This document shows positions 6,865 through 28,145 of a stretch of DNA of 64,000 nt, in pieces (the first letter of the stretch is position 1; every line of letters starts with the position of its first letter). The stretch spans positions 98,913 to 162,912 of the forward strand of contig JBFXLE010000009.1 of assembly GCA_050173015.1 (NCBI GenBank), in the 5' to 3' direction. Both the position numbers and the translations under genes were made by a program. This stretch comes from Calditrichaceae bacterium. GTDB taxonomy: Bacteria; Calditrichota; Calditrichia; Calditrichales; JBFXGD01. The notes below the pieces were generated by a model. The model worked only from the letters and a program-made list of their open reading frames with translations, was not told the origin of the DNA and ran no database searches.

Positions 6865-7130
6865 AGACTCAGGGGTGGAAAGTATTCTGCCACAAGCATA
6901 GCAAATATTTTAAAAAAATCAGCTCAAAAAGCAGGAATAACAAAAACGATAACGCCGCCTACGCGGCGTTCTTGTTTTGCGACGCGGTTGCTTGCGCAGG
7001 GTAGGGATTTAAGGTATATTCAGGAGTAGTTAGGTCAAAATAGTCCCGGGAAGACTGAACTGCACCCGTTTCGAATAAGTCTATTGATTGAATAAGGAAT
7101 TCTGTTGATGATATTTTTGAAAAGGATTAG
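6865..7130 (+). pseudogene. 3' vestige of a tyrosine recombinase (integrase) gene, reading towards the cassette array
   Basis: The frame starting at 6865 reads ...GGKYSATSIANILKKSAQKAGITKTITPPTRRSCFATRLLAQGRDLRYIQE*LGQNSPGKTELH. After a frame shift it continues PVSNKSID*IRNSVDDIFEKD*. This parallels the box II C-terminus of Xer/integrase proteins (HTLRHSFATHLLE.G.DLRYIQELLGH...TTEIYTHVSNK...). It contains stops, has lost the His/Arg positions, and the catalytic Tyr codon is deleted. About three quarters of the gene is missing upstream. Confidence 0.7.
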
Positions 7131-7220
7131 TTAATTGTAAAAAAAATATATAAACAATGGTTCATACACCGCCAATTTGGGGGGATAAGAACAATGGGAT
7201 ATATACGAACGTTATGGGCA
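6951..7220 (+). repeat. Scaffold repeat copy 1: integrase vestige, hairpin, then GTT core (attI-like junction)
   Basis: About 270 bp that aligns with 11399-11669 and 20268-20540. It starts with the perfect hairpin AACGCCGC-ctac-GCGGCGTT followed by cttgtttt. It ends with the hairpin aatggttc..ccgccaatttgggggg..gaacaat and then GTTATGG at 7211. Confidence 0.85.
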
Positions 7221-7342
7221 AGGCAATGAAAGAAAACGCAATGGGAGTAATATTGTCAGGAAATAGAAAGTTGGAGACTAAAAATAGCTAATATAGATGA
7301 ATGTTTTGAGAAAATAAAAATAGATTCTAAAGAGAAAATATT

Positions 7343-7849
7343 ATGAGTATATACACAGATAAAACATATGTTGCTTTTGATGCTGATAATGATATCCACT
7401 ACTACAGATTGATGCAAGCTTGGAAAAAAAATGATAATTCTTCATTTAACTTTTATGATGCTCACGATTTGAATAATTTGATGTCTTGGTCTTCAGAAGA
7501 AACAATAAAAGCGAGACTTGCTGAAAGAATGAAAAACTCAAAAGTCTTTATTTTACTTGTAGGAAATAACACAAAATTTCTATACAAATTTGTTCGATGG
7601 GAAATTGATCAAGCTTTAAAAAGAGAAAAACCTATTATAGTTGTTAACTTAAATAAAAAGAGAAGCAGGGATACCGAACGATGTCCTGCTATTTTAAATA
7701 GTGAATTAGCGGTTCATATAAGTTTTAATCAAAAGATAATTGAATACGCAATAAATAATTGGCCTAGCTCTGAGGAGTATTACCGTAAGAACAATGAAAA
7801 AGGAGATTATTATTACAAAGATTCTGTTTATAAAGAATTAGGAATATGA
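7343..7849 (+). CDS. thsB: ThsB-like TIR domain protein (DUF1863/MTH538 TIR-like), type II Thoeris
   Basis: 168 aa. KTYVAFDADND...SKVFILLVGNNTKF..FVRWEIDQALKREKPIIVVNL matches the DUF1863 TIR-like pattern, including the conserved WEI glutamate. Its stop overlaps the next start (ATGA). Confidence 0.7.
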   Translation: MSIYTDKTYVAFDADNDIHYYRLMQAWKKNDNSSFNFYDAHDLNNLMSWSSEETIKARLAERMKNSKVFILLVGNNTKFLYKFVRWEIDQALKREKPIIVVNLNKKRSRDTERCPAILNSELAVHISFNQKIIEYAINNWPSSEEYYRKNNEKGDYYYKDSVYKELGI

Positions 7850-8751
7850 AAATGGGTATTTACAGATGGTTGTCGAAATATAAATCTATCCTTACAGATT
7901 TGATGTCTGGTATAGGCCTTTTTTGGCTATTTGTTGAAATAGCAAGTTATTCGACAAATGGACAAATTGACAAATACACGAAAAGCATAGCTTTTTTCTT
8001 AGTAGGGTTTGTATTAATCATTATTATAGTGCTAATAAAAAATAGGCCTAGAACATCTTTTTCCTATAAATTACGAGATAAAGATAATTTCATAGAAGTT
8101 AAAGTAGGTGATGCTTTTGATAATAATGGAGCTTTAATAATTCCATTCAATAATTATCTTGATGTATCTCTCGGTGGTAATGTAAAAAAGGCTAATAGTC
8201 TGCAAAACAAACTTATAAAACAATATTATTTTGATAAAGAAGAACATTTAGTTCAAGATATTTTAAAAAAAACAAATCTAACTGCACCATTTGATATTGG
8301 TACGACTGTAGAAATTGAACAAAAAGGTAAAAGTTTTTTTCTACTAGTTAATTCTCATAAAAAAGAAAATAACCGAGTTGTATCGACAGTTGATGACTTC
8401 TTATTGAGTTTATCGAAGGTTTGGGATTTCATTGCTTTGGAATCCGGAAGAAAAAGTATAGTAACAATTCCAATAATAAGTACAAATCACGGCAGAATAA
8501 CAGACTTAAACAGAATGAATGCGATAAAAGAAATTATTAATAGCTACGTTGAGGCTTCAAAGTTTCTAAATATTGCAGATAAATTGATAATCAGCATTTT
8601 TCCAGACGATATAAATAAAGGAAATATTAAACTTGATGAAGTAGATGAATATTTAAAGTTTCAGTGTAATCATTATAGAAAAGTTCATTTTTCACCTAAA
8701 CTAGAAGGTAAAGAAGTAAGTCCTTCAGTTACAAAGGGTATTAATAATTAA
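7846..8751 (+). CDS. thsA: ThsA-like effector: two N-terminal TM helices plus a Macro-like domain (type II Thoeris)
   Basis: 301 aa. Two hydrophobic helices (GIGLFWLFVEIASY and IAFFLVGFVLIIIIVLI) are followed by IEVKVGDAFDNNGALIIPFNN, which resembles the Macro-domain start (GDIT...AIVNAAN). It is translationally coupled to the TIR gene. Confidence 0.6.
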   Translation: MKMGIYRWLSKYKSILTDLMSGIGLFWLFVEIASYSTNGQIDKYTKSIAFFLVGFVLIIIIVLIKNRPRTSFSYKLRDKDNFIEVKVGDAFDNNGALIIPFNNYLDVSLGGNVKKANSLQNKLIKQYYFDKEEHLVQDILKKTNLTAPFDIGTTVEIEQKGKSFFLLVNSHKKENNRVVSTVDDFLLSLSKVWDFIALESGRKSIVTIPIISTNHGRITDLNRMNAIKEIINSYVEASKFLNIADKLIISIFPDDINKGNIKLDEVDEYLKFQCNHYRKVHFSPKLEGKEVSPSVTKGINN

Positions 8752-8811
8752 TTACAAGAATAATAGGAAATACAATAGGAAATTTTAATTAAGGAAATTA
8801 AGAAGCCCAGC

Positions 8812-8942
8812 CCATAACAATGCATATACTTTATGGCGGGTTCCGTTATGAAAATGAGTATTTTAGTTTCAAATATAAATCAGTGTGGACAGAAAGATTT
8901 GTCTTCCAAAGTCCGCCACAAAGCATATGCTTCCCGTTATGC
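8812..8942 (+). repeat. attC-like site 1
   Basis: The left arm cATAACaatgcatatactttatggcgg pairs with the right arm ccgccacaaagcatatgcttcccGTTATgc. It is an imperfect inverted repeat with a bulge and about 75 bp of variable centre. Confidence 0.65.
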
Positions 8943-8967: not shown

Positions 8968-9825
8968 ATGATTATAATAAATGACAAGTCAATAGAGAAA
9001 CTCAGAGACCTGATAAATGAAGAAACTGAATATCGGTCAGGTCCGAAACTCATCGAGTTTTTTAAAGACTTGGGCTTCAATGACTCTTATGGTCAAGGAT
9101 TTCCTTCTCGTTGGAAATATACTGATGATCGCCTTCGCAAAATTAACGGTAAACCAGAATTAGATAAGTGCATCAGAAAATTATTCAATCCAGTTAATTT
9201 CATTGGCAAAACTTCTGAACTTGATAACCACATCAAAAATCTGAATCAATATTTAGCTTTTGATAAATGGCAGGTAGTTCGTAATGGTACAGAAATAACT
9301 TTCAAAAAGAAAGATAAGGTTGAACTGCATGATGATTATGCAGAACTGAAAGCAGATGAATTTTTAGATAAAGAATTTGATGATATTTCAATAGATGCTC
9401 TAGGTCTTGATTCTATAGTTTCAGAAGTTCTCAAAATTCGTTTTGTAGAAATAAAGAATTGTTTTGCAGCAAAAGCACATTTGTCGGTCATTTTTCTTTC
9501 AGGCAGTAGTCTTGAAGGAATCCTACTAGGAATTGCTTTGAAGTCACCTACGGAATTCAACCAAGCTAAATCTGCACCTAAAGACAAGGAAGGCAAAGTC
9601 AAACAATTTCCTGATTGGACTTTGAGCCAACTAATTGACGTTACGTTTGAAGTTGGTCTCATCAAGGATGATGTGAAAAAATTTAGTCATGCTCTTCGAG
9701 ACTTCAGAAACTACATTCACCCATATCAGCAAGTAAGCTCGGGATTTAATCCTGATCACCATACAGCAAAAATTTGCTTTCAAGTATTGAAGGCAGGAGT
9801 ATTTCAACTATCAAAAAACAAATAA
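8968..9825 (+). CDS. Possible HEPN-domain protein (Abi-like RNase candidate) with an uncharacterized N-terminal domain
   Basis: 285 aa. The C-terminal helical region contains SHALRDFRNYIHPYQQ, an R-x6-H arrangement compatible with the HEPN Rx4-6H motif. The N-terminus (EYRSGPKLIEFFKDLGFNDSYGQGFPSRWKYT) is reminiscent of N-terminal domains of Abi/HEPN proteins. No search was run. Confidence 0.4.
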   Translation: MIIINDKSIEKLRDLINEETEYRSGPKLIEFFKDLGFNDSYGQGFPSRWKYTDDRLRKINGKPELDKCIRKLFNPVNFIGKTSELDNHIKNLNQYLAFDKWQVVRNGTEITFKKKDKVELHDDYAELKADEFLDKEFDDISIDALGLDSIVSEVLKIRFVEIKNCFAAKAHLSVIFLSGSSLEGILLGIALKSPTEFNQAKSAPKDKEGKVKQFPDWTLSQLIDVTFEVGLIKDDVKKFSHALRDFRNYIHPYQQVSSGFNPDHHTAKICFQVLKAGVFQLSKNK

Positions 9826-10164
9826 ATGGATACTACACAATTTAAAAACGGCTATTTCATTGAGAGAGTTTATCAACCAATCTCAGAAACTGAATTCAAG
9901 TGTCGACTAATAGTTAAATCAAAGGCGAATAATCAAGAAATTACAGGAATAGAGACTAAAATAAATACCGTTGAGATTGGTCAGGGATTAGCAGACTCAC
10001 AATTTAGCGTTAATCCAATAAGTTGGGAGAGATATTTGAACCAGACAATTACAATGTTATTCAACATGTTGATGCTTCGTCTGAATATTACCGACTTGCA
10101 TAATGTTGACGGAGAAGATAAAATTTCTGAATTCTTTGACGAAAATCCGTTTCACCAAAATTAA
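9826..10164 (+). CDS. Hypothetical protein, partner of the putative HEPN protein
   Basis: 112 aa. Its ATG directly abuts the upstream TAA (TAAATG). It lies in the same cassette, between attC-1 and attC-2. I recognise no motif. Confidence 0.5.
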   Translation: MDTTQFKNGYFIERVYQPISETEFKCRLIVKSKANNQEITGIETKINTVEIGQGLADSQFSVNPISWERYLNQTITMLFNMLMLRLNITDLHNVDGEDKISEFFDENPFHQN

Positions 10165-10345: not shown

Positions 10346-11230
10346 ATGATTTTAGACTATTTAAATAAAACATTTAATAACAGAGAAATCGTATTGATTT
10401 CCTATTTGACAATTTTCATTATATGGACACTTACACAGAAAAATATTAGACAGTCCATAGTGTCTGTGATTAAAGCATTTATGGCATGGAAGATACTTGT
10501 TTCAATATTTGTGTTGTTACTATATATTGCATTGATTGCTTTTGGATTATTTAAAATTGGACTTTGGGATAAATCCATGATTAAAGATACTGTTTATTGG
10601 ACTTTTGGGGTCGGATTCATTATTATGATGAATTTTGACAAAGCATTGAAGGAAGAACACTATTTTAAGAACCTTGTCAAAGAAAATTTTAAAGTCCTTA
10701 TAATCATTGAATTTATAGTTGGAATTTATGTTTTTGGTATCATCACTGAATTTATTTTAATGCCATTTGTGATTCTATTTTCAATGTTATTAGGATACAC
10801 TGAAGTTTATAAAGAGCATGGACAAGTTCGCAAATTTTTAAATGGAATCTTTGGCATCATAGGTACGATTTATTTAATTTATTCCGGTTATCATATTTAC
10901 TCTGATTTTACTGGATTTGCAACTCTGGGGAATCTTAAAACATTTTTATTCCCTTTAATAATGTTTGTTCTATTTTTACCATTTGCATATTCCTTTGCAC
11001 TATTGGCTCATTACGAGAGCTTATTCGTTCGATTAGGTTTTTTCCTTAAAGACAAAAAATTGAGAAGATTCGCTAAGTGGAGAATATTATTGTCAGTAAA
11101 TTTTAGCATTTTAAGATTAAAACGAATAACACCTGGAATGTTATTTAGTGACTGTTCTACTAGAGAAGATATAAAAAATGAGATAAAAAATAAAATAAAC
11201 CCAGCAGCTAACACACAATATAGCCAATAA
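10346..11230 (+). CDS. Polytopic membrane protein, unknown function (single-gene cassette)
   Basis: 294 aa with about 7-8 hydrophobic segments (for example IVLISYLTIFIIWTL, ILVSIFVLLLYIALIAFGLF, FILMPFVILFSMLLGY). Its last codons overlap the inverse core of attC-3. Confidence 0.55.
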   Translation: MILDYLNKTFNNREIVLISYLTIFIIWTLTQKNIRQSIVSVIKAFMAWKILVSIFVLLLYIALIAFGLFKIGLWDKSMIKDTVYWTFGVGFIIMMNFDKALKEEHYFKNLVKENFKVLIIIEFIVGIYVFGIITEFILMPFVILFSMLLGYTEVYKEHGQVRKFLNGIFGIIGTIYLIYSGYHIYSDFTGFATLGNLKTFLFPLIMFVLFLPFAYSFALLAHYESLFVRLGFFLKDKKLRRFAKWRILLSVNFSILRLKRITPGMLFSDCSTREDIKNEIKNKINPAANTQYSQ

Positions 11231-11340
11231 GGGTTTCAGTGGTATGCAAAGGGTTGTAGTGTAGCCCGCTCCAACTTTTCGTGTAACTTGATAGGAAATC
11301 ACCCGCAATCCCTTACTGGCCATATTGTCAAGCGTTAGCT
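11207..11340 (+). repeat. attC-like site 3 (subtype Y)
   Basis: GCTAACacacaatatagccaataaggg pairs with cccttactggccatattgtcaagcGTTAGCt. It shares the gcaatcccttac right arm and the gtaacttgata centre with the sites at 20082 and 28024. Confidence 0.7.
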
Positions 11341-11669
11341 CCAAGGCTAAAAAATAGAAACAAAAAGAATAAAATATTTGCCAAAAGGATGAAAATAGAA
11401 CGCCGCCTATGCGGCGTTATTGTTTTGCGACGCGGTTGCTTGCGCAGGGTACGGATTTAAGATATATTCAGGAGTAGTTATGTCATATTAGTCCCGGGAC
11501 GACTGAACTGCACACGTCTCAAATAAGTCAATTGATTGAATAAGGAATTCTGTTGATGATATTTTTGAAAGGGATTAGTTAATCGTAAAAAAAATATATA
11601 AACAATTGTTCATATACCGCTGATTTGGGTGGATAAGAACAATAACATATACACGCACGTTAGGTTGCA
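11341..11669 (+). repeat. Scaffold repeat copy 2: leader, integrase vestige, hairpin, GTT core
   Basis: Starts immediately after the attC-3 core. It translates as TPPMRRYCFATRLLAQGTDLRYIQE*. It carries the hairpin AACGCCGC-ctat-GCGGCGTT followed by attgtttt, and ends GTTAGGT at 11659, 25 bp before the next ATG. Confidence 0.85.
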
Positions 11670-11683
11670 TTAAAAAAGAAACC

Positions 11684-12268
11684 ATGAAACTATATCACAG
11701 ATACAACATAAAGAGAAAACAAGAACATTTATTTTTGGAGTTTATCTTGAATAATATTCCAGGAATAAATTATTTAAAAGAGAATTATCGTCTTACAGAA
11801 AATGAATATGATTCATCAATTGAGATAAAACCCATAATTGATTCATTAAAAAATGACACTTGGTTACCAAAAAAGCGTAAACAAAATTGCATTGACATTT
11901 TACAGGACATTAAACTTAATCATGACAAGGTCGTAGTATTTGAATCGGTTAATAAAATATCATTTGATTTCACTATTAAAATAGATAGTGACTTGTTTTT
12001 CTTTGAATTACACGAAGACCAACACAAGAAGTTAAAAGTAAATAGACAGTCAAAAATATTTGATATCCAAGGAAATGAAATTTTTGTTCCTCGTTATTTA
12101 CAAAGATTATTAAAGGATATTTGGCGCTGGGAGAATCTTGACAACTACAAGATAATTTGGGCTGACTGGTTTATTTCATCATCAAATAAACTTTCTAACT
12201 TGTTGGAAAAAGGAAAAATCGAATACGGAATAGATAATACATTTCAATTTAAAAACTTAGGAATATGA
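11684..12268 (+). CDS. Hypothetical protein, possibly a DUF559/Vsr-like (PD-(D/E)xK-fold) endonuclease
   Basis: 194 aa. SFDFTIKIDSDLFFFELHEDQHKK followed by RYLQRLLKDIWRWENL loosely resembles the DF...(hydrophobic)E.DG..H...D..R..L pattern of DUF559. This is weak, by-eye evidence only. Confidence 0.3.
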   Translation: MKLYHRYNIKRKQEHLFLEFILNNIPGINYLKENYRLTENEYDSSIEIKPIIDSLKNDTWLPKKRKQNCIDILQDIKLNHDKVVVFESVNKISFDFTIKIDSDLFFFELHEDQHKKLKVNRQSKIFDIQGNEIFVPRYLQRLLKDIWRWENLDNYKIIWADWFISSSNKLSNLLEKGKIEYGIDNTFQFKNLGI

Positions 12269-12717
12269 ATATTGAAGAATTGGAACAAAAGATTGCGAAA
12301 CTTAGAAACGAAATAAAAAAGGATACTCTAGAACTTGAGAATGTTCCCGAAAGATTTATTTCAGTAATCAAAGGAGAACTGAAAACAAAAGAAGGTAGAT
12401 TAATTGATTTGGAGTTAAAACTGGATGATTTAATTGAAAATGGAATTACTGATAGGCTGCAAAAGCCAATTGATGAATTACAAGAGAAAATTAAATCGTT
12501 TATTCTTGATTATCAATTTCAATATCCACAGGACAAAGAAATGTTTATCTATCAAATTGCATTTGAAGAAAATGATGATGAACTCTTGATAAGCTTAAAA
12601 CCAAAGGAAAAAACCACAAATCGATTGAACAAATACAACAAGGATTTACTAAAAGTTACAATAGAGAACAAAGTAATACAAGAACCAAAAGCTACTGACC
12701 TTTTATTAAGACTTTAA
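12265..12717 (+). CDS. Hypothetical coiled-coil protein
   Basis: 150 aa. ATGA start/stop overlap with the upstream ORF. The N-terminal 80 aa are heptad-like and charged (EELEQKIAKLRNEIKKDTLELEN...). No motif recognised. Confidence 0.5.
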   Translation: MNIEELEQKIAKLRNEIKKDTLELENVPERFISVIKGELKTKEGRLIDLELKLDDLIENGITDRLQKPIDELQEKIKSFILDYQFQYPQDKEMFIYQIAFEENDDELLISLKPKEKTTNRLNKYNKDLLKVTIENKVIQEPKATDLLLRL

Positions 12718-12792
12718 AGCACTTTTCAATTAAAAAAGTTAAATCACTTGACCTTGTATTCTTAGGAGTTCCCTTAATCGCTGAATATAGCC

Positions 12793-12932
12793 ATGACAAA
12801 TATCAATAGAAACAAATATCAAACAACCTTTTCGTTTTGACTCAGATTTCCAAAGATAAAAAGAAAGAAATTCTTGAATATATTGCAGAAAAATTCAATC
12901 AGAGTATAAAAATCGAATTTGTGAAGAAATAA
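12793..12932 (+). pseudogene. Possible frameshifted small ORF at the end of the cassette
   Basis: ATG at 12793 gives MTNINRNKYQTTFSF then a stop. The -1 frame continues LTQISKDKKKEILEYIAEKFNQSIKIEFVKK*. That stop (12930-12932) lies inside the inverse core of attC-4, mirroring the overlap of the 3' end of ORF 10346-11230 with the inverse core of attC-3. Confidence 0.25.
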
Positions 12933-13074
12933 CGCAACCTAGCACGCAATAAAAAACATAGGGCAGAAAGTGCAAAAATTGAACGACATAACATTTAATA
13001 AACGACTTGGTAACTTGACAGGGAAGTGCTTCGAAATGCCAAACGTTTCATATACGTAACCGATAGCGTTCATT
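12928..13074 (+). repeat. attC-like site 4 (subtype X)
   Basis: AATAACgcaacctagcacgcaataaaaaacatagggca pairs imperfectly with tgccaaacgtttcatatacgtaaccgatagcGTTcATT. It shares aataacgc and gaaatgccaaacg with the site at 21575. The core is weaker than in the other sites. Confidence 0.5.
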
Positions 13075-13149: not shown

Positions 13150-13227
13150 CCACCGCACAAATGGCATATTTGGTTTTTGCCGACGCACAGCCAAACGCTG
13201 AAAAAACCAAAAGAGCCATTTCTTGCC
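13150..13227 (+). repeat. IR-B1: structured inverted repeat of about 75 bp forming the 5' leader of hsdR
   Basis: The arms aaatggcatatttggttttt and aaaaaccaaaagagccattt are 17/20 complementary around a spacer of about 23 nt (gccgacgcacagccaaacgctg). It is homologous to 21722-21795 through to the start codon. Confidence 0.75.
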
Positions 13228-13251
13228 ATCTCACGACTGAAAGATAATGAT

Positions 13252-16098
13252 ATGACAACATATAAAAATCAAAATCCTGAACAAATAGCCAGAGACAAAA
13301 TTGACAAAATGTTAATTGAAGCTGGTTGGATTGTTCAATCTAAAAATGAAGTTGACTTGGGTGCAGGCAGAGGTGTTGCGTTGAGAGAATACCAAACGGA
13401 AACAAAATTTGCGGATTATGTGCTGTTTGTTGACAAAAACCCTGTTGGAATTATTGAGGCAAAAAAAGAAGACGAAGGACATAAACTAACCGTAGCGGAA
13501 GACCAAGCCTCTGAATATGCCAAAGCAAAACTAAAATATTTGGATAACGACCCATTGCCTTTTGTTTTTGAGAGTACCGGAACAATAACCCGTTTTAGAG
13601 ATACACGAGACCCAAAACCAAGAGGGCGACATATTTTTTGGTTTTACCGTCCCGAAACATTGGCGGAATGGCTACAAAAAGATAAAAGTTTAAGAGGTAG
13701 ATTATTAGATATTCCGCAATTAAATGAGACTGGGCTTCGCCCTGCTCAAATTAAGGCGATTAATAACCTTGAACAATCTTTTAAAAAGAACAAGCCAAAA
13801 GCTTTAATACAAATGGCTACCGGAGCAGGTAAAACTTTTACTGCCTGTACTTTTGTGTATCGCTTATTGGAACACGCCAAAGCCAAACGGATTTTATTTT
13901 TGGTTGACACCAAAAACTTAGGAGAACAAGCAGAACAGGAGTTTATGGCTTTTCAGCCCAACGACAGCAATCGCAAATTCACAGAATTGTATAATGTACA
14001 GCGTCTTACTTCAAGCTACATAGCAAGCGATAGTCAGGTTTGTATCTCTACCATTCAACGGATGTATGCCATTTTAAAAGGTGAAGAACTAGACGAAGGA
14101 GCCGAAGATACAAACCCGAACGAATCGACCTGGATGGAACAACAGCGAAATAAAAAACAGGCAATGCCTGTGGAATATTCTGCCAAAGTACCCATTGAAC
14201 AATTCGATTTTATTGTAATTGATGAATGCCACCGCTCTATTTACAATCTTTGGAAACAAGTGTTGGATTATTTCGATGCTTTCCTTATCGGCTTAACTGC
14301 CACACCCGATAAGCGAACTTTTGGCTTTTTTGAGGAAAATGTAGTGAGCGAATATACCTATGAAGAATCTGTGTTGGATGGTGTAAATGTTCCTTACGAT
14401 GTGTACAATATTGAAACTGAAATTTCGCAAAAAGGCAGTGTGATAAAAGCAGGTTGGTTTGTGGACAGACGAGATAAGCTCACCCGAAAAACGCGTTGGC
14501 AACAAGAAGATGAAGACACCGAATATTTGAAAAACGATTTGGATAAAAAGGTCGTTAATCCAAGCCAGATACGGAATATTATTCGCCAATACAAAAAAGC
14601 ATTGGAAACCGAAATTTTCCCGAACAGAAAAGACGAAAATGGAGAATACGAAGTTCCTAAAACACTGGTTTTTGCAAAAACTGACAGCCACGCGGATGAT
14701 ATAATCAAAATCATTCGTAAAGAATTTGACGAAGGCGATGATTTCTGCAAAAAACTGACTTATAAAATAAAAGAAGACCCAAAATCGGTGTTAAACCGTT
14801 TTCGGAATTCATATCATCCCCGCATTGCGGTTACGGTAGATATGATTGCAACGGGAACCGATGTAAAACCTTTGGAAGTGTTGTTGTTTATGCGTGATGT
14901 TAAAAGCACCAACTACTTTGAACAAATGAAGGGTAGAGGAACACGCACCATTAACAAAGATGCTTTTCAGGCAAACAACACCAATGTAAAAGGGGCTTGC
15001 AAAACCCATTTTATTATTGTGGATGCAGTTGGCGTAACAAAGTCGAAGAAAACCGACAGCCGGCCTTTGGAACGCAAACCAACTGTAGCCTTAAAAGATT
15101 TATTGGGAGCGGTAACAATGGGAGTTACCGAAGAAGATTTGTTTCTTTCGCTTGCAAATCGTTTGATACGATTAGAAAAAGAAATTACCGACAAGGAAAA
15201 AGATAAATTACTGGAACATTCCAAAGGCAAAAATCTGAAACAAATCAGCAAAGAATTATTATCGGCTTTTGATAAAGATGAAATTGAAAACAGAGCACAG
15301 GAAAAAATTGAAAAATTCTGTAAAGACGCCCTACAGGGCGTCTCTTCTGCTGCCGATTTATCTCCGGCACAAATAGAATCTTTCCGACAGGACGCACAGA
15401 AAGAATTGATTAATACCGCCGCTTCTACTTTTAACGGAAAGCTGAACGATTATATTGAAAAAGTGCGTATGGAACACGAGCAAATTATCGACAGCCACAA
15501 TATCGACACCGTAACAAAATCGGAATGGGACACCGCTTCGGTGGATAAAGCCAAAGAAACTGTAAAAGATTTTAACGAATACCTCGAAGCCAATCAGGAC
15601 GAGATAAAAGCATTGACCATTTTTTACAAACAACCCTACAACCGCCGAAACATTACCTTTAAAATGATTAAAGATGTGTTTGATAAACTGAAATTGGATA
15701 AACCCACCCTTGCCCCCGATTATGTTTGGGCGGCATACAGCCAATTGGAAGAGGTAAAAAGCAAACAACCGATTGACGAACTCACCGCGTTAATTTCGTT
15801 AATTCGCAGGGCTTGCGGAATTGACAGCGAGTTGAAAGCTTTTGATTCCACCATTGACGAAAATTTCAAAAACTGGATTTTCAAACAAAACGCAGGCAAG
15901 CACAACCGCTTTACAACCGAACAAATGGACTGGCTGCGAGAACTGAAAAATCACGTAGTAAATTCGTATCACATAGAAATTGAAGACCTCGATTATACAC
16001 CCTTTGATGAAAAAGGAGGACGTGGCAAAATGTACCAACTCTTTGGTGCCGAAATGAACGATATTATTAATGAACTTAACGAGGTATTAGCAGCATAA
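13252..16098 (+). CDS. hsdR: Type I restriction enzyme R subunit (HsdR), with an EcoEI-type C-terminal domain
   Basis: The N-terminus KIDKMLIEAGWIV...ADYVLFVD..PVGIIEAKKE is the HsdR_N nuclease fold. It also has helicase motif I (MATGAGKTFT), DECH (IVIDECHRS) and TATP, plus a C-terminal tail like EcoEI_R_C. I prefer the ATG at 13252 over the track start at 13177, which lies inside IR-B1. Confidence 0.85.
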   Translation: MTTYKNQNPEQIARDKIDKMLIEAGWIVQSKNEVDLGAGRGVALREYQTETKFADYVLFVDKNPVGIIEAKKEDEGHKLTVAEDQASEYAKAKLKYLDNDPLPFVFESTGTITRFRDTRDPKPRGRHIFWFYRPETLAEWLQKDKSLRGRLLDIPQLNETGLRPAQIKAINNLEQSFKKNKPKALIQMATGAGKTFTACTFVYRLLEHAKAKRILFLVDTKNLGEQAEQEFMAFQPNDSNRKFTELYNVQRLTSSYIASDSQVCISTIQRMYAILKGEELDEGAEDTNPNESTWMEQQRNKKQAMPVEYSAKVPIEQFDFIVIDECHRSIYNLWKQVLDYFDAFLIGLTATPDKRTFGFFEENVVSEYTYEESVLDGVNVPYDVYNIETEISQKGSVIKAGWFVDRRDKLTRKTRWQQEDEDTEYLKNDLDKKVVNPSQIRNIIRQYKKALETEIFPNRKDENGEYEVPKTLVFAKTDSHADDIIKIIRKEFDEGDDFCKKLTYKIKEDPKSVLNRFRNSYHPRIAVTVDMIATGTDVKPLEVLLFMRDVKSTNYFEQMKGRGTRTINKDAFQANNTNVKGACKTHFIIVDAVGVTKSKKTDSRPLERKPTVALKDLLGAVTMGVTEEDLFLSLANRLIRLEKEITDKEKDKLLEHSKGKNLKQISKELLSAFDKDEIENRAQEKIEKFCKDALQGVSSAADLSPAQIESFRQDAQKELINTAASTFNGKLNDYIEKVRMEHEQIIDSHNIDTVTKSEWDTASVDKAKETVKDFNEYLEANQDEIKALTIFYKQPYNRRNITFKMIKDVFDKLKLDKPTLAPDYVWAAYSQLEEVKSKQPIDELTALISLIRRACGIDSELKAFDSTIDENFKNWIFKQNAGKHNRFTTEQMDWLRELKNHVVNSYHIEIEDLDYTPFDEKGGRGKMYQLFGAEMNDIINELNEVLAA

Positions 16099-17636
16099 TG
16101 AGAGAAGATTGGATTGACGTTGAATTAAAAGATGTTTGCCTAAGTTCAAAGGGAAAGAAACCAAGTGTTTTAGAAAAAAATAATTCTGAAACTGCTAATG
16201 TGCCATATATAAATATCAAAGCTTTTGAGAAAGGTATAATAGAAGAATACACTGATGGTGAAAAATGCAATTTATGTGAAGATGGTGACTTGTTAATGGT
16301 TTGGGATGGTGCAAGGGCTGGGCTTACAGGTAAAGCTAAAAAAGGTGCTGTTGGTTCAACACTAATGAGAATTGAAGAAGTAAAAGGTATTGAAAAGGAA
16401 TATTTATATTATTTTCTTTTATCACTTTTTACAAAGATTAATACAAATCCAAGAGGTGTTGGTATTCCACATGTTGAACCACGAATACTATGGTTGTCAA
16501 AAGTATTAATTGTTAGCAGTCCCATCCAACGAGCAATAGTATCCAAAATCGAAGCCCTGTTTTCCGATTTGGACAACGGCATCGCCAATTTAAAAAAAGC
16601 ACAGGAGCAATTAAAAATATACCGTCAAGCGGTTTTGAAAAAGGCCTTTGAGGGCGAACTCACAAAAGAATGGCGTGAAAAGATTGTACAGACGCCCAAT
16701 TTGGGCGTATCAACGCCCCTGCCAACAGCCGAAGAACTGCTAAAACAAATAAAAGAAGAACGCCAAAACCACTACAACCAACAAATTGAAGACTGGAAAA
16801 AAGCGGTTAAGGAATGGGAGAAAAATGGGAAAGTTGGGAAGAAGCCAAGTAAGCCTAAGCAGCAAAAAGAATTGCCACCTTTAAATGAGGAAGAATTGAA
16901 TGAGCTGCCGAAATTGCCAAAGTCAATGGTATGGACACAACTTGGAAATGTGGTTTGGTCTGTAAAAGATGGACCTCATTTTAGCCCTAAATATTCAAAA
17001 ACTGGTATACCCTTTATCTCAGGTGGGAATATTAGACCAGAAAAAATTGACTTTGAAAAAGTAAAATATATTTCAGAAGAGCTTCATAAGGAACTAAGTC
17101 GAAGATGTAAACCACAATTAGATGACATTCTATACACCAAAGGCGGAACAACTGGAATTGCAAAAGTTAATACATATAAATTTGATTTTAATGTTTGGGT
17201 GCATGTAGCAGTATTAAGACCAATCCAAATGATTTTACCATTATATTTACAACATGTTTTAAATTCTTCTCATTGTTATAAACAATCGCAAGAATATACA
17301 CATGGGGTTGGTAATCAAGATTTAGGTTTAACAAGAATGATTTTAATCACACTGCCTATTTGTTGTAAAGAAGAACAAACCCAAATCGTCCAAGAAATAG
17401 AAAGCCGTTTATCGGTTTGCGACAAAGTAGAGCAAAGCATAACCGAAAGCCTTGAAAAAGCCGAAGCCCTTCGCCAAAGCATTCTTAAAAAAGCATTTGA
17501 GGGCAAATTATTAAGCGAAGCTGAAATAGAACAATGCAAAAAGGCAGCCGATTACGAACCTGCGGCAAAATTGTTGGAACGAATAAAACAGGAAAAAATA
17601 AATAAGGATAATAATAAAAAAACAAAATCAAAATAA
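16098..17636 (+). CDS. hsdS: Type I restriction-modification specificity subunit (HsdS)
   Basis: 512 aa. Two target-recognition halves are each followed by the conserved helix LKKAFEG(E/K)L (at about aa 180 and about aa 470). TAATG overlap with hsdR. The central linker carries a REP-like insertion. Confidence 0.85.
   Translation: MREDWIDVELKDVCLSSKGKKPSVLEKNNSETANVPYINIKAFEKGIIEEYTDGEKCNLCEDGDLLMVWDGARAGLTGKAKKGAVGSTLMRIEEVKGIEKEYLYYFLLSLFTKINTNPRGVGIPHVEPRILWLSKVLIVSSPIQRAIVSKIEALFSDLDNGIANLKKAQEQLKIYRQAVLKKAFEGELTKEWREKIVQTPNLGVSTPLPTAEELLKQIKEERQNHYNQQIEDWKKAVKEWEKNGKVGKKPSKPKQQKELPPLNEEELNELPKLPKSMVWTQLGNVVWSVKDGPHFSPKYSKTGIPFISGGNIRPEKIDFEKVKYISEELHKELSRRCKPQLDDILYTKGGTTGIAKVNTYKFDFNVWVHVAVLRPIQMILPLYLQHVLNSSHCYKQSQEYTHGVGNQDLGLTRMILITLPICCKEEQTQIVQEIESRLSVCDKVEQSITESLEKAEALRQSILKKAFEGKLLSEAEIEQCKKAADYEPAAKLLERIKQEKINKDNNKKTKSK
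16691..16708. repeat. REP-like palindrome a (partial), in frame inside hsdS
   Basis: GACGCCCAATTTGGGCGT, translated as QTPNLGVS in the HsdS central linker. Confidence 0.8.
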
Positions 17637-17687
17637 TTGTGAAACGCGTTGGACGTATTTGTCGCATTTGACGCGTTGGACGCATTG

Positions 17688-17716
17688 GTAGAGACGCCCA
17701 ATTTGGGCGTCTCTAC
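17688..17716. repeat. REP-like palindrome b (29 nt)
   Basis: GTAGAGACGCCCAATTTGGGCGTCTCTAC. It lies between hsdS and the RAYT gene, flanked by cgttggacg motifs and gatccc/gacgac short repeats. Confidence 0.85.
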
Positions 17717-17788
17717 GACGACGATCCCTACGATCCCGATCCCGACGACGACAATATCGTTCACGTTCACAATAACGAAAACAAAAAT

Positions 17789-18400
17789 ATGCCCGATAAA
17801 TTTCAAAACAAATACCGCATACCATCGGCACGATTGCAAACATGGGATTATGGAAGCAATGGAACCTATTTTATAACCATTTGCACCCAAAACCGTGAAC
17901 ATTATTTTGGTGAAATTACAGACGGTAATATGATATTATCCGAAATAGGAATTTTGGCGAACAAATATTGGAATGAAATACCAGAACATTTTCCATTTGT
18001 CAATTTGGATGAATTTGTGGTAATGCCCAACCACGTGCATGGGATTATTATCATTGATAAACCCGATGATGGACGGGATGATGGGCGGGACGTTGGACGG
18101 GACGTTGGACGGGACGTAGAGACGCCCAAATTGGGCGTCTCTACCAATACCAATACCAATACCAATACCAATCATCAAACCGCCACGGCATCCGAAAAAT
18201 GGAAACCGGCATCATTGGGGGTAATTATCAACCAATATAAACGAATGGCAACCATTAAATCGCGTAAAATCCACGCTGATTTTGGTTGGCAATCCCGTTT
18301 TTACGACCAGATCATACGAAACAACGAATCGTATGAAAAAATCAGAAATTATATTGTCAACAACCCATTGAAATGGGAAGAAGATAAATTTTACAATTAA
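17789..18400 (+). CDS. IS200/IS605-family Y1 (HUH) transposase of the REP-associated (RAYT) type
   Basis: 203 aa. NKYRIPSARLQTWDYGSNGTYFITICTQNREHYFG, the HUH motif VVMPNHVHGIIII, and the C-terminal catalytic-Tyr region GWQSRFYDQIIRN. It is interrupted in frame by a low-complexity/REP insert of about 35 aa. Confidence 0.8.
   Translation: MPDKFQNKYRIPSARLQTWDYGSNGTYFITICTQNREHYFGEITDGNMILSEIGILANKYWNEIPEHFPFVNLDEFVVMPNHVHGIIIIDKPDDGRDDGRDVGRDVGRDVETPKLGVSTNTNTNTNTNHQTATASEKWKPASLGVIINQYKRMATIKSRKIHADFGWQSRFYDQIIRNNESYEKIRNYIVNNPLKWEEDKFYN
18071..18172 (+). repeat. Composite in-frame insert in the RAYT gene: 12-mer x4, REP hairpin, hexamer x4.7
   Basis: GGACGGGATGAT/GGGCGGGACGTT/GGACGGGACGTT/GGACGGGACGTA at 18071-18118, the REP palindrome at 18116-18144, and (CAATAC)n at 18145-18172. 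Together these translate as GRDDGRDVGRDVGRDVETPKLGVSTNTNTNTNTN. Confidence 0.9.
18116..18144. repeat. REP-like palindrome c (29 nt), in frame inside the RAYT ORF
   Basis: GTAGAGACGCCCAAATTGGGCGTCTCTAC. Identical to palindrome b except for the flipped centre (aaatt versus aattt). Confidence 0.85.
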
Positions 18401-18415
18401 ATTGAAAGAAATAAT

Positions 18416-19936
18416 ATGTCAGAAAGTGCAATAGTATCAAAAGTGTGGAATTTCGCCAATGTTCTTAGAGACGATGGAGTGGGTTATGGTGATTATTTAG
18501 AGCAAATCACCTATTTGCTTTTCCTAAAAATGGCAGACGAACTTAACAAACCGCCCTACAATAAAGGTTTAAAATTTCCGAAACTCAAAAATGCTGAGGG
18601 TGTTGAATTGCCCGATGCCGAAACCTGCGACTGGCAAACGCTGTCGCAAAAACGTGGTTTGGAATTGGAAAATTTTTACAACCAAATGCTACGAAGTTTG
18701 GGAAGCGAAAAAGGAACGTTGGGGCAAATTTTCGTAAAAAGTCAAAACAAAATACAAGACCCATCAAAACTCTTAAAAATCATTGATATGATTGATAAAG
18801 AGCAATGGAGCTTAATGGGAACCGATGTAAAAGGGAAAATTTACGAAGGTCTTTTAGAGAAAAATGCCGAAGACACCAAAAGCGGTGCAGGGCAATATTT
18901 TACGCCTCGTTCGCTCATCAAAACAATGGTGGCTTGTGTTCGTCCCAAACCCATGAAAACCATTATAGACCCTGCTTGTGGCACTGGCGGTTTCTTTTTG
19001 GCAGCTTACGATTATATCAAAAGTCAGAATTTAGACCAGGAAGAAAAGGAGTTTTTGAAAAACAAAACTTTCTACGGAAACGAAATTGTAGCCAATACAC
19101 GCAGAATGTGTTTGATGAACATGTTTTTGCACAACATTGGCGAAATTGATGGCGAAACACTCATTTCTTCAGCTGATGCTTTGGTTTCGGACAATGGCAT
19201 ACGCTACGATTATGTGCTGGCAAATCCGCCTTTTGGTAAAAAAAGCAGTATGACCATTACCAACGAAGAGGGCAAACTGGAAAAGCAGGATTATACTATC
19301 AATCGTCAGGATTTTGTGGCTACCACAGCCAACAAGCAACTAAACTTTTTGCAACACATAAAAACGCTTTTAAAACTCACAGGCGAAGCAGCCGTTGTAC
19401 TTCCCGATAATGTTTTGTTTGAGGGCGGAGCAGGCGAAACGGTTCGGAAAGAATTGATGAAAACAACCGAATTGCATACAATTTTAAGACTTCCAACAGG
19501 TATATTTTACGCACAAGGTGTAAAAGCAAATGTTTTGTTTTTCGACAACAAACCAGCTTCAAAAGAGGCTTGGACAAAAGATGTTTGGATTTATGATTAT
19601 CGAAGTAACATAAGCCACACATTAAAGAAAAACCCAATGCGATTTGAGCATCTACAGGAATTCGTAAAACTCTACAATCCCGAAAACCGAAATAAAAGAA
19701 CAGAAACGTGGAGCGAAACAAATCCCGAAGGCAGATGGAGAAAGTATAGTTATGCTGAAATCATTGAACGAGATAAAACCAACTTGGATATATTTTGGAT
19801 TAAAGACAAAAGCTTAACCGACTTAGATAATTTACCCGACCCCGATATTTTGGCAAACGAAATCATTGAAAACATTGAAGCCGGATTAAATAGTTTTAAA
19901 GAAATAATGGAAACAATAAACGGAGATGAAAGCTAA
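18416..19936 (+). CDS. hsdM: Type I restriction-modification N6-adenine DNA methyltransferase (HsdM)
   Basis: 506 aa with an HsdM_N-like N-terminus, the SAM motif IIDPACGTGGFF and the catalytic motif LANPPFG. Confidence 0.9.
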   Translation: MSESAIVSKVWNFANVLRDDGVGYGDYLEQITYLLFLKMADELNKPPYNKGLKFPKLKNAEGVELPDAETCDWQTLSQKRGLELENFYNQMLRSLGSEKGTLGQIFVKSQNKIQDPSKLLKIIDMIDKEQWSLMGTDVKGKIYEGLLEKNAEDTKSGAGQYFTPRSLIKTMVACVRPKPMKTIIDPACGTGGFFLAAYDYIKSQNLDQEEKEFLKNKTFYGNEIVANTRRMCLMNMFLHNIGEIDGETLISSADALVSDNGIRYDYVLANPPFGKKSSMTITNEEGKLEKQDYTINRQDFVATTANKQLNFLQHIKTLLKLTGEAAVVLPDNVLFEGGAGETVRKELMKTTELHTILRLPTGIFYAQGVKANVLFFDNKPASKEAWTKDVWIYDYRSNISHTLKKNPMRFEHLQEFVKLYNPENRNKRTETWSETNPEGRWRKYSYAEIIERDKTNLDIFWIKDKSLTDLDNLPDPDILANEIIENIEAGLNSFKEIMETINGDES

Positions 19937-19939
19937 GCC

Positions 19940-20020
19940 CAGCCCAAAAACCATACACATTTGCAATTCGCGCGAGCCAACGCTTGACCAAAAATTGCAA
20001 AAGAGTATGTCTTGCCAACG
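19940..20020 (+). repeat. IR-B2: structured inverted repeat immediately downstream of hsdM
   Basis: The arms catacacatttgcaatt and aattgcaaaagagtatg flank the spacer cgcgcgagccaacgcttgaccaa. The element is preceded by agcccagcccaaaaac and followed by cttgcc. Confidence 0.75.
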
Positions 20021-20081: not shown

Positions 20082-20209
20082 GCTAACACGCGGTATAAAA
20101 CATTGGGGTTTAAGTATTTATTCGAGCGTTCTACCCCGCATCAAGTTCGGTGTAACTCGACAGGATAGTAGCCCGCAATCCCTTACGAGTCATACACTCA
20201 AAGTTAGTT
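20082..20209 (+). repeat. attC-like site 5 (subtype Y)
   Basis: GCTAACacgcggtataaaacattgggg pairs with cccttacgagtcatacactcaaaGTTAGTt. The centre is homologous to attC-3 and attC-7. Confidence 0.65.
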
Positions 20210-20540
20210 CCAAGCCTAAAAAATAGAAACAACAAGAATAAAATATTTGCCAAAAGGATGAAAATAGAACGCCGCCTATGCGGCGTTATTGTTTTGCAAC
20301 GCGGTTGCTTGCACAGGATAGGGATTTAAGGTATATTCAGGAGTAGTTAGGTCATAATCGTTCCGGGACTACTGAAATTTGCGCACATCTCAAAAAAGTC
20401 TATTGATAAAAACAGTAATCCTACGGATGATATCTTTGAAAGGGATTAGATAATTGTAAAAGAAATATATAAACAATTGTTCATACACCGCCAATTTGGG
20501 CGGATAAGAACAATAGAATATATACGAACGTTGTGTGGCA
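20210..20540 (+). repeat. Scaffold repeat copy 3: leader, integrase vestige, hairpin, GTT core
   Basis: Same order as copy 2. It has the hairpin AACGCCGC-ctat-GCGGCGTT, the integrase-like frame FATRLLAQDRDLRYIQE*, the terminal hairpin ATTGTTC-ataca-CCGCC-aatttg-GGCGG-ataa-GAACAAT, and then GTTGTGT at 20530. Confidence 0.85.
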
Positions 20541-20572
20541 TTAGAAGTAACTTACATAAAAAAGGGTGACTT

Positions 20573-21160
20573 ATGGAAATAAAATTTGATGTGGAAATAC
20601 AAGATGAAGAGAAAGAACTTCTGAAAACGATATTACATTGTGATAATGATGAAGACTTAAATAATCTCTTGAATAAATTAGGCCGTTCTTCATTTGAAGA
20701 TATTAGAAGAATGACAATTGGACAAAAAGTATTTACTCGTGGAAGAGATATTTTAGAATATCGGTTATTTAATTTAATAAAGTTTTTCTTCGATGGGAAA
20801 ATACCAGACGAACAAAAAATATGTGATTTATTCCAAATAACGGCAACTGAAAGTCGAGCATTTATTCGCTCAATAATGTCAAAGTATCAATATGACTTAA
20901 AAGAAACAATATCTTCAACATTAAAAGAACAAGTAGAAAATATTCAAAAAGAAGAAAATGAAGAAGTTTATAAACTTTCCATTCAAAACCAGTATTTCAA
21001 AGATGAATTAAATAGAATATTAGGAACAATAGACACAAGTTTACCGATTATTGAAAAAGAGCGGGGAACTATTTCTACTTATGTAATTCAAACATCATCT
21101 TACCAGAAGTTATGTGAACATTTTGGCATTGAACTAGAAGAAGAAAACAATGAAAACTGA
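20573..21160 (+). CDS. Hypothetical protein (possible HTH-containing regulator or sensor)
   Basis: 195 aa with an acidic N-terminus. The ICDLFQITATESRAFIRSIMSKY segment looks like a helix-turn-helix. No family recognised. Confidence 0.45.
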   Translation: MEIKFDVEIQDEEKELLKTILHCDNDEDLNNLLNKLGRSSFEDIRRMTIGQKVFTRGRDILEYRLFNLIKFFFDGKIPDEQKICDLFQITATESRAFIRSIMSKYQYDLKETISSTLKEQVENIQKEENEEVYKLSIQNQYFKDELNRILGTIDTSLPIIEKERGTISTYVIQTSSYQKLCEHFGIELEEENNEN

Positions 21161-21569
21161 TTTACCTAATTTATTAACTGCATCAAGTATTCTATTGGGA
21201 ATTATTACTGCATTATATGGTTTATTTTTTCCTGCGATTAATTCAATTTTAGTAATAAAATCTAAGCCCCATAAGGTTGATAATAAGAAGGCCTACAGTG
21301 AAAGCAAGGATATTATAAAAGCAAAATATATTCCATTATTAATTGGTTCGTTAGTAATTACATTGATAAACATACCAGAGCTGTTTTCTCAATTAAGAAA
21401 TAGTTTTGTTGCAATAAAAACTAGTGGAATAGAGAACACAACATATGATACGTTAACAGCATCATTTATTGTCGTTTGCCTTTTTATGATTTTCATTACG
21501 ATAATGATGATAGCAACTGGTTTTAAGTTAAGAAAGAAAATAAAAGAACTTAATCCAAATGAACAATAA
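21150..21569 (+). CDS. Small 3-TM membrane protein, unknown function
   Basis: 139 aa. It overlaps the upstream ORF by 11 nt. Hydrophobic helices: SSILLGIITALYGLFFPAI, IPLLIGSLVITLINIP and FIVVCLFMIFITIMMIATGF. Confidence 0.5.
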   Translation: MKTDLPNLLTASSILLGIITALYGLFFPAINSILVIKSKPHKVDNKKAYSESKDIIKAKYIPLLIGSLVITLINIPELFSQLRNSFVAIKTSGIENTTYDTLTASFIVVCLFMIFITIMMIATGFKLRKKIKELNPNEQ

Positions 21570-21574
21570 CGCCA

Positions 21575-21704
21575 CACAACAAAAAATATAGTGCATTTGG
21601 CAGATGGTGCTAAAAATGAAAATGATTGCAATAAATGAACATAGTAGTAAATTGAAAGCTTGGAGCGTTGAAATGCCAAACGCACCATATTCAAACCGTT
21701 GTAT
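21575..21704 (+). repeat. attC-like site 6 (subtype X)
   Basis: CACAACaaaaaatatagtgcatttggca pairs with tgccaaacgcaccatattcaaaccGTTGTAt. It begins 6 nt after the stop of the 139-aa ORF. Confidence 0.6.
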
Positions 21705-21721
21705 GCCATGCTGGAAACGAG

Positions 21722-21795
21722 CTAACCGCACAAATAGCACATTTGGTTATTGCTGACACAAAAGCAAAGGCTGAAAAACTAAAAGAGCTATTTTA
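21722..21795 (+). repeat. IR-B3: structured inverted repeat forming the 5' leader of the STAND gene
   Basis: The arms aaatagcacatttggttatt and aaaaactaaaagagctattt form the repeat. It aligns with IR-B1, including the preceding accgcaca and the following ...acgcaca.agact.aaa...ATG. Confidence 0.7.
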
Positions 21796-21825
21796 TTGTC
21801 AAACGCACATAGACTAAAACTAAAA

Positions 21826-27904: not shown

Positions 27905-27990
27905 TCCAAACGCTCGCATCCATACACATTGGCAAATCGCACAGGACAGCCACACCAGCCAAAATTTGCCAAAGAGTATGGCTGCACCAA
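27905..27990 (+). repeat. IR-B4: structured inverted repeat immediately downstream of the STAND gene
   Basis: The arms catacacattggcaaat and atttgccaaagagtatg form the repeat. Relative to IR-B2, both arms changed together (tttgcaatt/aattgcaaa became ttggcaaat/atttgccaa). Confidence 0.75.
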
Positions 27991-28023: not shown

Positions 28024-28145
28024 ATACAACAATGTGTATAATTCATAAGGGTTTCAGCGGATTGCAAGCCGTATCACCCGCATCAAATTCGGGTGGTAAC
28101 TTGATAAGTAAAAAGTTCGCAATCCCTTACGAATCATAGTTAGCT
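28024..28145 (+). repeat. attC-like site 7 (subtype Y), last in the array
   Basis: catACAACaatgtgtataattcataaggg pairs with cccttacgaatcataGTTAGCt. The centre (gggtttcagcgg...ggtaacttgataag) is homologous to attC-3. Confidence 0.6.

Follow-up and report, generated by a model that had tools for sequence, protein, structure and literature searches.

Which kind of unit is a pair of small, unannotated genes lying among defence systems, and how many genes does it contain? The question is raised by a 64,000-nucleotide stretch of DNA (the window) from the metagenome-assembled genome (MAG) of a Calditrichaceae bacterium (GenBank assembly GCA_050173015.1, contig JBFXLE010000009.1, positions 98,913 to 162,912), in which two overlapping open reading frames (ORFs), here called A and B, encode proteins of 194 and 150 amino acids. 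A preliminary description had read them as a possible nuclease with a coiled-coil sensor, followed by a decayed third small ORF. We find that the locus consists of two genes, not three, and that the pair makes up a single integron gene cassette (about 11660-13068), part of an integrase-less array. Integron cassettes are a known kind of element, while the A and B protein families are unannotated and rare.

Two genes on one cassette

Both reading frames of the preliminary description (11684-12268 and 12265-12717) exist and overlap by ATGA, and their position behind the second of three integrase vestiges was given accurately, the vestige being real. What follows B had been taken for a third gene, possibly a degraded small regulator, and here the homologues tell otherwise. 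Among 5.8 billion proteins we found 13 homologues of B, ten of them 222 amino acids long, the others of 219 and 210 residues plus a 113-residue fragment, so that the intact ones span 210-222 residues. Their C-termini read ...TDTFIKTLKHFSIEKVKSLDLVFLGVPLIAEYSHDKYQQKQISNN.FVLTQVSKEKKKEILEYIA.KFN..IKIEFVKK, and the window encodes exactly that end in another frame, between 12700 and 12932. In a tblastn search the C-terminal 76 residues of B (147-222) aligned with window positions 12702-12929 at 86% identity, and a profile hidden Markov model of B matched three consecutive frame segments of the window.

A DNA alignment with the homologues located two lesions in B, a one-nucleotide deletion and an in-frame stop codon (Table 1). 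The supposed third gene is the C-terminal part of B: in the homologues it is the end of full-length B, there is no small regulator, and the 15-codon ORF proposed as its start is not a gene start. Its stop codon, which had been placed within an AATAAC core, is the original stop of B (12930-12932). Four nucleotides separate it from the actual R'' core downstream (ACCTA[G]C, 12937-12943), which is the complement of the GTTAGGT at the 5' end of the cassette.

Pairwise ratios of nonsynonymous to synonymous substitution rates (dN/dS) are low in both genes, 0.06-0.20 for A and 0.08-0.13 for B, and we therefore consider both to be real genes. The remnant of B in the window, including its out-of-frame part, still gives values of 0.05-0.10; because the out-of-frame tail retains this signature, the inactivation is recent or, less likely, an assembly artefact. 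As it stands, the window copy probably yields only A and a 150-residue stump of B.

The limits of the cassette were seen directly in the comparison of loci. Its start, GTTAGGTTG(C/T)ATTA, lies about 22 nucleotides before the ATG of A and is common to the window and seven other loci (L005, L006, L007, L009, L014, L016 and L035), and is preceded in each by unrelated DNA. Across at least seven unrelated contexts the junctions fall exactly at the G/TT crossover (the slash marking the point of exchange), so that the same unit is found with different flanks, as expected of a mobile cassette; L005 and L006, for example, part exactly after GTTA. Beyond the stop codon of B the homologues continue ...TAACGCAACCTAAC, with the core ACCTAAC, the reverse complement of GTTAGGT, and about 135 nucleotides further on comes a second GTT core, reading GTTAGCA or GTTACAG. 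The complementary R'' (RYYYAAC) and R' (GTTRRRY) cores of an integron cassette are thus present, with that of the window copy mutated to ACCTAGC. The crossover and the ATG of A are only 22 nucleotides apart, too few to accommodate an internal promoter, and expression of the pair must start upstream.

Folding of the attC sites gave a similar picture. A simple scanner of our own, which looks for AAC...GTT with complementarity of the R and L boxes and uses 20 shuffles as a control, recovered sites above all 20 shuffles at 8812-8942, 11206-11340 and 21574-21704 in the window, and found sites flanking the A-B cassette in L004, L005, L006, L035 and L039. The A-B attCs of L005 and L009 fold canonically, showing the R box, unpaired spacer, L box (about 17 bp) and large loop of such sites, and the window attCs at 11200-11345 (z -3.5) and 21567-21705 also form R-box/L-box hairpins. 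The window's own A-B attC, in contrast, is a decayed copy. Aligned with its homologues it has ACCTAGC for ACCTAAC in R'', an 8-nucleotide deletion that removes half of L'' and a rearranged R' region; its hairpin is weaker than that of shuffled sequence (z +2.1), and it was not detected by the scan that its neighbours pass. Since its attC lacks an intact core and part of an arm, the cassette is probably no longer mobile here. The preliminary description had noticed the attC context, but it had not read the pair as one mobile integron cassette, in this copy decaying.

Integron cassettes have been shown experimentally to carry phage-resistance genes (10.1101/2024.07.02.601719; 10.64898/2026.03.17.712381). 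The A-B unit resembles known cassettes in being bounded by attC sites with complementary R''/R' cores and R-box/L-box hairpins, in sharing the orientation of its array, in having almost no 5' untranslated region, in occurring in different arrays with G/TT junctions and in sitting among defence cassettes. It differs from them in its host, a MAG of the Fibrobacteres-Chlorobi-Bacteroidetes (FCB) group (Calditrichaceae/Bacteroidota) rather than a Vibrio or a clinical class 1 integron, in holding two genes over about 1.4 kb, and in an array that, in the window, contains only integrase vestiges, repeated three times along with an attI-like end.

The A and B families

The A family comprises 96 clusters at 50% identity, almost all of 185-210 residues (profile search of 1.84 billion representative proteins), and an alignment-based genome scan with the close A alignment matched only two genomes. 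Across 58 diverse members D95, E108, E111 and D145 are invariant, and H110, Q113, H114, R137, R141, W147, R148 and D161 nearly so. The best-conserved stretch of the family is the string FDFTIKIDSDLFFFELHEDQHKK...RYLQRLLKDIWRW, which had been singled out before and is indeed found in A. The protein is basic, with an isoelectric point of 8.5-9.5. Neither single-sequence nor profile searches of sequences in the Protein Data Bank (PDB), nor scans against Pfam, NCBIfam, PADLOC and PHROGs with up to 58 members, returned anything credible. The partners to which A is fused in P0123, P0064, P0049 and P0055 were considered as a clue to function and set aside, having no Pfam domains and no similarity to B.

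In the AlphaFold2 (AF2) model of A (predicted TM-score 0.67) a core of about residues 41-160 is well predicted. The order of its elements, helix 63-77, strands 82-84, 96-100 and 103-110, helix 137-151 and strand 155-159, fits an alpha-beta-beta-beta-alpha-beta restriction-endonuclease-like core, in which D95 heads a strand and E108-x-H110 lies on the next. The named weak Foldseek neighbours of this model in the PDB and BFVD are almost all PD-(D/E)xK enzymes, among them HincII, Hjc, I-Ssp6803I, influenza PA, restriction enzymes, DUF2726, VRR-NUC and Vsr-like proteins; together these features weakly suggest a PD-(D/E)xK fold.

The suggested likeness to DUF559 and Vsr came down to a short motif. 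Like the DUF559/Vsr-like branch of the PD-(D/E)xK superfamily (for example E. coli YcjD), A is small and basic and occurs in defence and mobile settings, with a predicted arrangement of an aspartate at a strand start, an acidic residue two positions before a basic residue or histidine on the next strand; its weak structural neighbours come from that superfamily. The local motif FFELHEDQH also resembles VVELDGGQH of DUF559/YcjD, and the only local match in profile-profile alignment (hhalign) was this one, FFELHEDQHK against VVELDGGQHD over 10 columns, which remains a motif-level lead. Two parts of A have no counterpart in DUF559, an additional beta-hairpin at residues 122-136 and an N-terminal stretch of 60 residues.

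Full-length B gave nothing credible in Pfam, NCBIfam, PADLOC, PHROGs or PDB sequences, and PADLOC-DB v2 held no match to it. Its AF2 model has a mean predicted local distance difference test (pLDDT) score of 75.7 and shows a confident N-terminal helical hairpin (residues 3-65), a third helix and then an alpha/beta domain; the protein is acidic over its first 140 residues and basic over its last 80. The charged, heptad-rich N-terminal half described earlier was borne out as strongly acidic and predicted to form long helices (pLDDT 84-93).

We then asked how far the two genes travel together. Protein look-ups gave 18 B loci, and a scan of 241 million metagenome records gave nine, five of them new. 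Every one of these loci has A directly upstream, with a stop/start overlap of 4 nucleotides, or of 11 in the L001 lineage. By contrast, where distant A members (26-38% identity) could be placed on contigs, B-like ORFs are absent from every frame. Co-occurrence, proposed before as a check, therefore holds from the side of B within the close clade and not from that of distant A, which is solo. On these gene contents B is restricted to the closest clade of A and is a lineage-specific add-on, not an obligatory sensor; because its distant relatives lack B, A is the autonomous unit, taken up repeatedly by integrons across phyla, and B a recent addition in one clade.

The association with integrons extends further than this clade. 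P0077, a distant A (27% identity, GC 0.66), forms a single-gene cassette between canonical GC-rich attCs (L045, 1124-2015), and in L044 (3379-6704) it belongs to a short array that adjoins the gene of a divergent integrase of the integron type (PF13495 and PF00589). The P0077 cassette indicates that the A family is integron-borne in very different lineages. Defence genes near A include Thoeris and a type I restriction-modification (R-M) system in the window, GmrSD and WYL/Mrr/REase-ARP (REase, restriction endonuclease), and, in distant A contexts, a type II R-M system with CBASS and Dcm/Vsr with a helicase.

In the Bacteroidales lineage of L001, L004 and L017 a conserved 289-residue protein matching no family follows B (for example L017, 7387-8256), and after it come genes for a GmrSD_N protein and DUF6994. 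The 289-residue protein may be another defence-island gene.

A tentative role in conflict, and other readings

The single likeliest reading, which we put forward tentatively, is that A is a solo, metal-dependent, nuclease-like conflict effector on an integron cassette, that B modulates or targets it, and that the module in the window is decaying. A would be a divergent PD-(D/E)xK-type nuclease, with D95 at a strand start, E108-x-H110 on the next strand and then E111, Q113 and H114; it would act alone and be carried on cassettes because it is useful against phages or other mobile DNA. One clade would have gained B, translationally coupled to A, as a lineage-specific accessory that modulates or targets A, its acidic N-terminus predicted as a helical hairpin and its C-terminal domain basic and alpha/beta. 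In the window, B has been newly lost by frameshift and nonsense mutation and the attC has eroded, and the cassette would be frozen in place. What we infer here is the nuclease chemistry of A, the regulatory role of B and the function in defence, and a conflict or defence role for the pair is plausible. The pairing of charges, a basic A with an acidic N-terminus of B, was counted in favour.

The pair also resembles two-gene defence or abortive-infection modules, being a coupled pair of a basic putative effector and an acidic helical partner in a defence-island neighbourhood. It differs from them in that PADLOC reveals no homology, the effector family is mostly solo, and the partner occurs in one clade only and has been lost repeatedly while A stays.

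Several results weigh against this reading. The model of A is only moderate overall (pLDDT 67.7) and poor at residues 113-117, beside the motif. Foldseek gave no significant match (best E 0.2 in the PDB and 0.03 in BFVD), with TM-scores of at most 0.33 and mostly about 0.1-0.25, and unlike the nucleases of the PD-(D/E)xK superfamily A has a histidine where the canonical (D/E)xK has its lysine and shares no significant similarity with them in sequence, profile or structure. Membership of DUF559 or Vsr was rejected: with a profile of 58 A sequences as query, hhalign gave probabilities of 0.09% for E. coli YcjD, 0.7% over 10 columns for a nine-sequence DUF559 alignment (plasmid genes) and 0.8% for a Vsr protein from L020, all below 1%. 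In PADLOC-DB v2 the matches of A were marginal (CARF3, 0.0028; HEC-02B in 3 of 58 members, best E 0.0023; PDC-M56B in 2 of 58), and a tblastn search with three A-family members found nothing in annotated plasmids and phages. For B, the structural search yielded no informative match, only faint ferredoxin- or ACT-like neighbours. The context is divided as well: recognisable defence genes occur in 6 of about 10 distinct A contexts, and those of L006, L009, L022 and L047 contain none that we recognise. Of the nuclease and coiled-coil sensor pair described at first, the nuclease thus has no significant structural match and the sensor is missing from distant relatives, and the defence setting applies to part of the contexts.

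A bolder version, possible though doubtful, would make the A family an unrecognised integron-borne branch of REase-like proteins with an E-x-H variant of the motif, acting as a stand-alone anti-phage or anti-plasmid effector, to which an FCB-group clade added the new coiled-coil partner B, giving a novel two-gene defence system that spreads as one cassette. If A-B, or A alone, is a defence effector, an unannotated family would be added to the phage-resistance integron cassettes, and the idea, so far tied to Vibrio and clinical class 1 integrons, would come to include environmental arrays of Bacteroidota and Calditrichota. What the analysis offers now is corrective: two genes instead of three, a window copy that is a recent pseudogene, and intact versions in L005, L009 and L035.

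The conserved string H110-E111-D-Q-H114 has the form HExxH, and the same alignment can be read differently. A might then be no nuclease but a zincin-like metal enzyme or a nucleic-acid-binding regulator, with a cassette role outside defence. That H110-E111-x-x-H114 is nearly invariant, that A has no significant nuclease match, that many integron cassettes are non-defence and that some A contexts are metabolic-looking arrays all speak for it. We nevertheless regard it as rather unlikely: AF2 places H110 and E111 at the end of a beta-strand, not in a long helix (the confidence at 113-117 being low), no peptidase family was found in Pfam or NCBIfam with all 58 members scanned, and the weak structural neighbours are consistently PD-(D/E)xK proteins and not zincins.

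The pattern of decay bears on a further explanation. Elsewhere the same cassette has B split (L014/L015) or cut to 29 codons (L018), A frameshifted (L011) or partial (L040), or both genes damaged or missing (L016). Many chromosomal integron cassettes are toxin-antitoxin (TA) or addiction modules that stabilise arrays, and two small overlapping genes for a basic protein and an acidic partner could be one of them. TA modules do occur in these arrays (HicA in L047, and a RES/Xre-like pair, read by eye, beside A in L018), and B has been lost more often (window, L014/L015, L016, L018) than A (L011, L016, L040), a pattern in line with a toxin B and an antitoxin A. Yet A stays intact and under purifying selection without B, is solo in distant lineages and has catalytic-looking residues, which is unlike an antitoxin; its solo occurrence equally rules out A as a toxin in need of B, and the intact B beside a frameshifted A in L011 argues against B as the toxin. 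Moreover, neither protein matches any known TA family, and at 194 and 222 residues both are above the typical size for such modules. A type II toxin is not expected alone, whereas A occurs without B in the window, L014 and L018, and B with a broken A in L011. Since either gene can persist once its partner is lost, and A commonly stands alone, we consider an addiction module improbable, and keep the conflict effector as the preferred reading.

Least probable of all is that B is intact in the organism and that the window holds a working pair, the two lesions being assembly or consensus errors of a MAG: the low dN/dS of the remnant (0.05-0.10) would also be expected of an error in an intact gene, but the lesions are independent, of different kinds and outside homopolymer runs, the attC of the same cassette carries three further degenerative changes, and the cassette has decayed independently in other assemblies (L014/L015, L016, L018 and L011).

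The surrounding array

The A-B cassette lies in a low-GC region of about 6.8-30.5 kb in which every called gene is on the forward strand. Positions 6800-30500 are an integrase-less attC array (CALIN-like) with unusually large defence units. We find this array more striking than the A-B pair itself, since Thoeris, type I R-M and NACHT units lie among attCs together with a triplicated vestige and attI-like element. Feature coordinates are collected in Table 1.

Table 1. Coordinates of features in the window, beginning with the A-B cassette
Feature	Position	Strand	Remark
R' core site GTTAGGT	11659-11665	+	5' boundary of the A-B cassette; crossover between G11659 and T11660
Gene A	11684-12268	+	194 residues, intact, basic, unannotated family
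Gene B	12265-12932	+	recent pseudogene of a 222-residue protein; first reading frame ends at 12717 (150 residues)
One-nucleotide deletion shifting the frame of B	12699-12700	+	GAC-CTTTT against GACACGTTT in homologues (DNA alignment)
In-frame TAG in B	12807-12809	+	CAG in homologues (KYQQKQ becomes KYQ, stop, KQ; DNA alignment)
15-codon ORF of the preliminary description	12793-12840	+	chance ORF, out of frame with the B remnant
Third ORF of the preliminary description	12837-12932	+	last 31 codons of B (LTQISKDKKKEILEYIAEKFNQSIKIEFVKK, then stop)
Decayed attC of the A-B cassette	12937-13074	+	R'' ACCTAGC (12937-12943), putative R' GTTCATT (13068-13074)
Repeated element of about 340 nucleotides, copy 2	11334-11659	+	between the previous attC R' (GTTAGCT, 11334-11340) and the A-B cassette; last base is the crossover G of GTTAGGT
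Terminator-like GC hairpin, then T-run, in the repeated element	11399-11418	+	also seen as inverted repeats I3/I4 between copies
Integrase vestige in element copy 2	11409-11477	+	translation MRRYCFATRLLAQGTDLRYIQE, then stop
Thoeris ThsB and ThsA-Macro	7343-8751	+	cassette 7213-8942, cleanly delimited (GTTATGG; attC with GCCCATAAC)
Three unannotated ORFs	8968-9825, 9826-10164, 10346-11230	+	
Type I R-M system (about 7 kb)	13177-19936	+	
Uncharacterised gene pair behind vestige copy 3	20573-21569	+	
NACHT ATPase gene	21796-27897	+	2033 residues, 6.1 kb
VWA protein	28660-30057	+	

Directly upstream of the cassette lies one of three direct repeats (D1-D3) of about 340 nucleotides, at 6886-7227, 11334-11675 and 20203-20546, which are 83-93% identical; a partial copy of the 5' part is also present at 28134-28205. 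All three copies end in ...TATAC(G/A)(A/C)AC directly followed by GTT, after which comes a different cassette each time (Thoeris, A-B and the 20573 pair), and to judge from these ends the element behaves like an attI-type junction. In copy 1 the vestige translates as ...ILKKSAQKAGITKTITPPTRRSCFATRLLAQGRDLRYIQE, a stop and LGQNSPGKTE; ILKKSAQKAGITKTITPPTRRSCFATRLLAQGRDLRYIQE, with the stop and LGQ, is probably a remnant of the conserved C-terminal motif of tyrosine recombinases. No intact integrase lies within the 64-kb window, where only the three C-terminal vestiges with attI-like ends represent the usual association with IntI and attI, and the array is for this reason called CALIN-like. A TAnnTTTG-type box, TATTTTTG (about 11566-11573), is kept in all three copies and, going by the Bacteroidota consensus, is a candidate promoter of that type. 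A scan for sigma-70 promoters found no site on the forward strand, and fewer overall than in shuffled sequence; the sigma-70 consensus is probably unsuited to the phylum.

Copies 2 and 3 of the element are each preceded by an attC R' and a 60-nucleotide cassette-type leader, and the whole looks like a triplicated delta-intI and attI module whose integrase points the same way as the cassettes. In L009-L013 the insertion point of the A-B cassette follows ...AAAGTTATAAGTTTGGGATGAGATTCATTA and precedes GTT, and the cassette has a copy of the 3' end of an alpha/beta-hydrolase gene on either side; L018 (5950-5990) has a similar junction, ...AAAGTTATAAGTTTGTGCGGAGTTTTATTA followed by GTT. These look like a different kind of attI-like target, in which the end of the upstream gene is duplicated, much as the vestige is in the window. 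The 20573-21569 pair was compared with A-B as a possible paralogue, and no relationship was detected.

Other parts of the array gave minor observations. The ORFs at 8968-9825 and 9826-10164 make up an unannotated two-gene cassette between Thoeris and a 294-residue multi-transmembrane protein; in PADLOC the first protein matches the N-terminal part of Stk2 (5e-10) and, weakly, AbiJ, and the cassette is a candidate for a further defence unit. Between hsdS and hsdM an ORF (17789-18400) resembles a repetitive extragenic palindrome (REP)-associated tyrosine transposase (RAYT; NCBIfam E 2.5e-16). Palindromic GTAGAGACGCCCAA(T/A)TTGGGCGTCTCTAC repeats flank this gene, with another copy in the 3' part of hsdS (16686-16726, 17684-17717 and 18104-18148 in all), and gene and repeats look like a RAYT/REP insertion in the R-M operon. 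A 54-nucleotide direct repeat (83% identical; 13152-13205 and 21725-21778) covers the start of both hsdR and the NACHT gene or lies just before it, perhaps as a common leader or as an N-terminal coding segment. Finally, a second repeat family with hairpin potential, CCATACACATTTGCAATTCGCGCGAGCC...TTGCAAAAGAGTATG, occurs after the R-M and NACHT units (19951-19994, 27920-27940 and 28217-28260) and might represent either a distinct, shorter type of attC or some other intergenic element.

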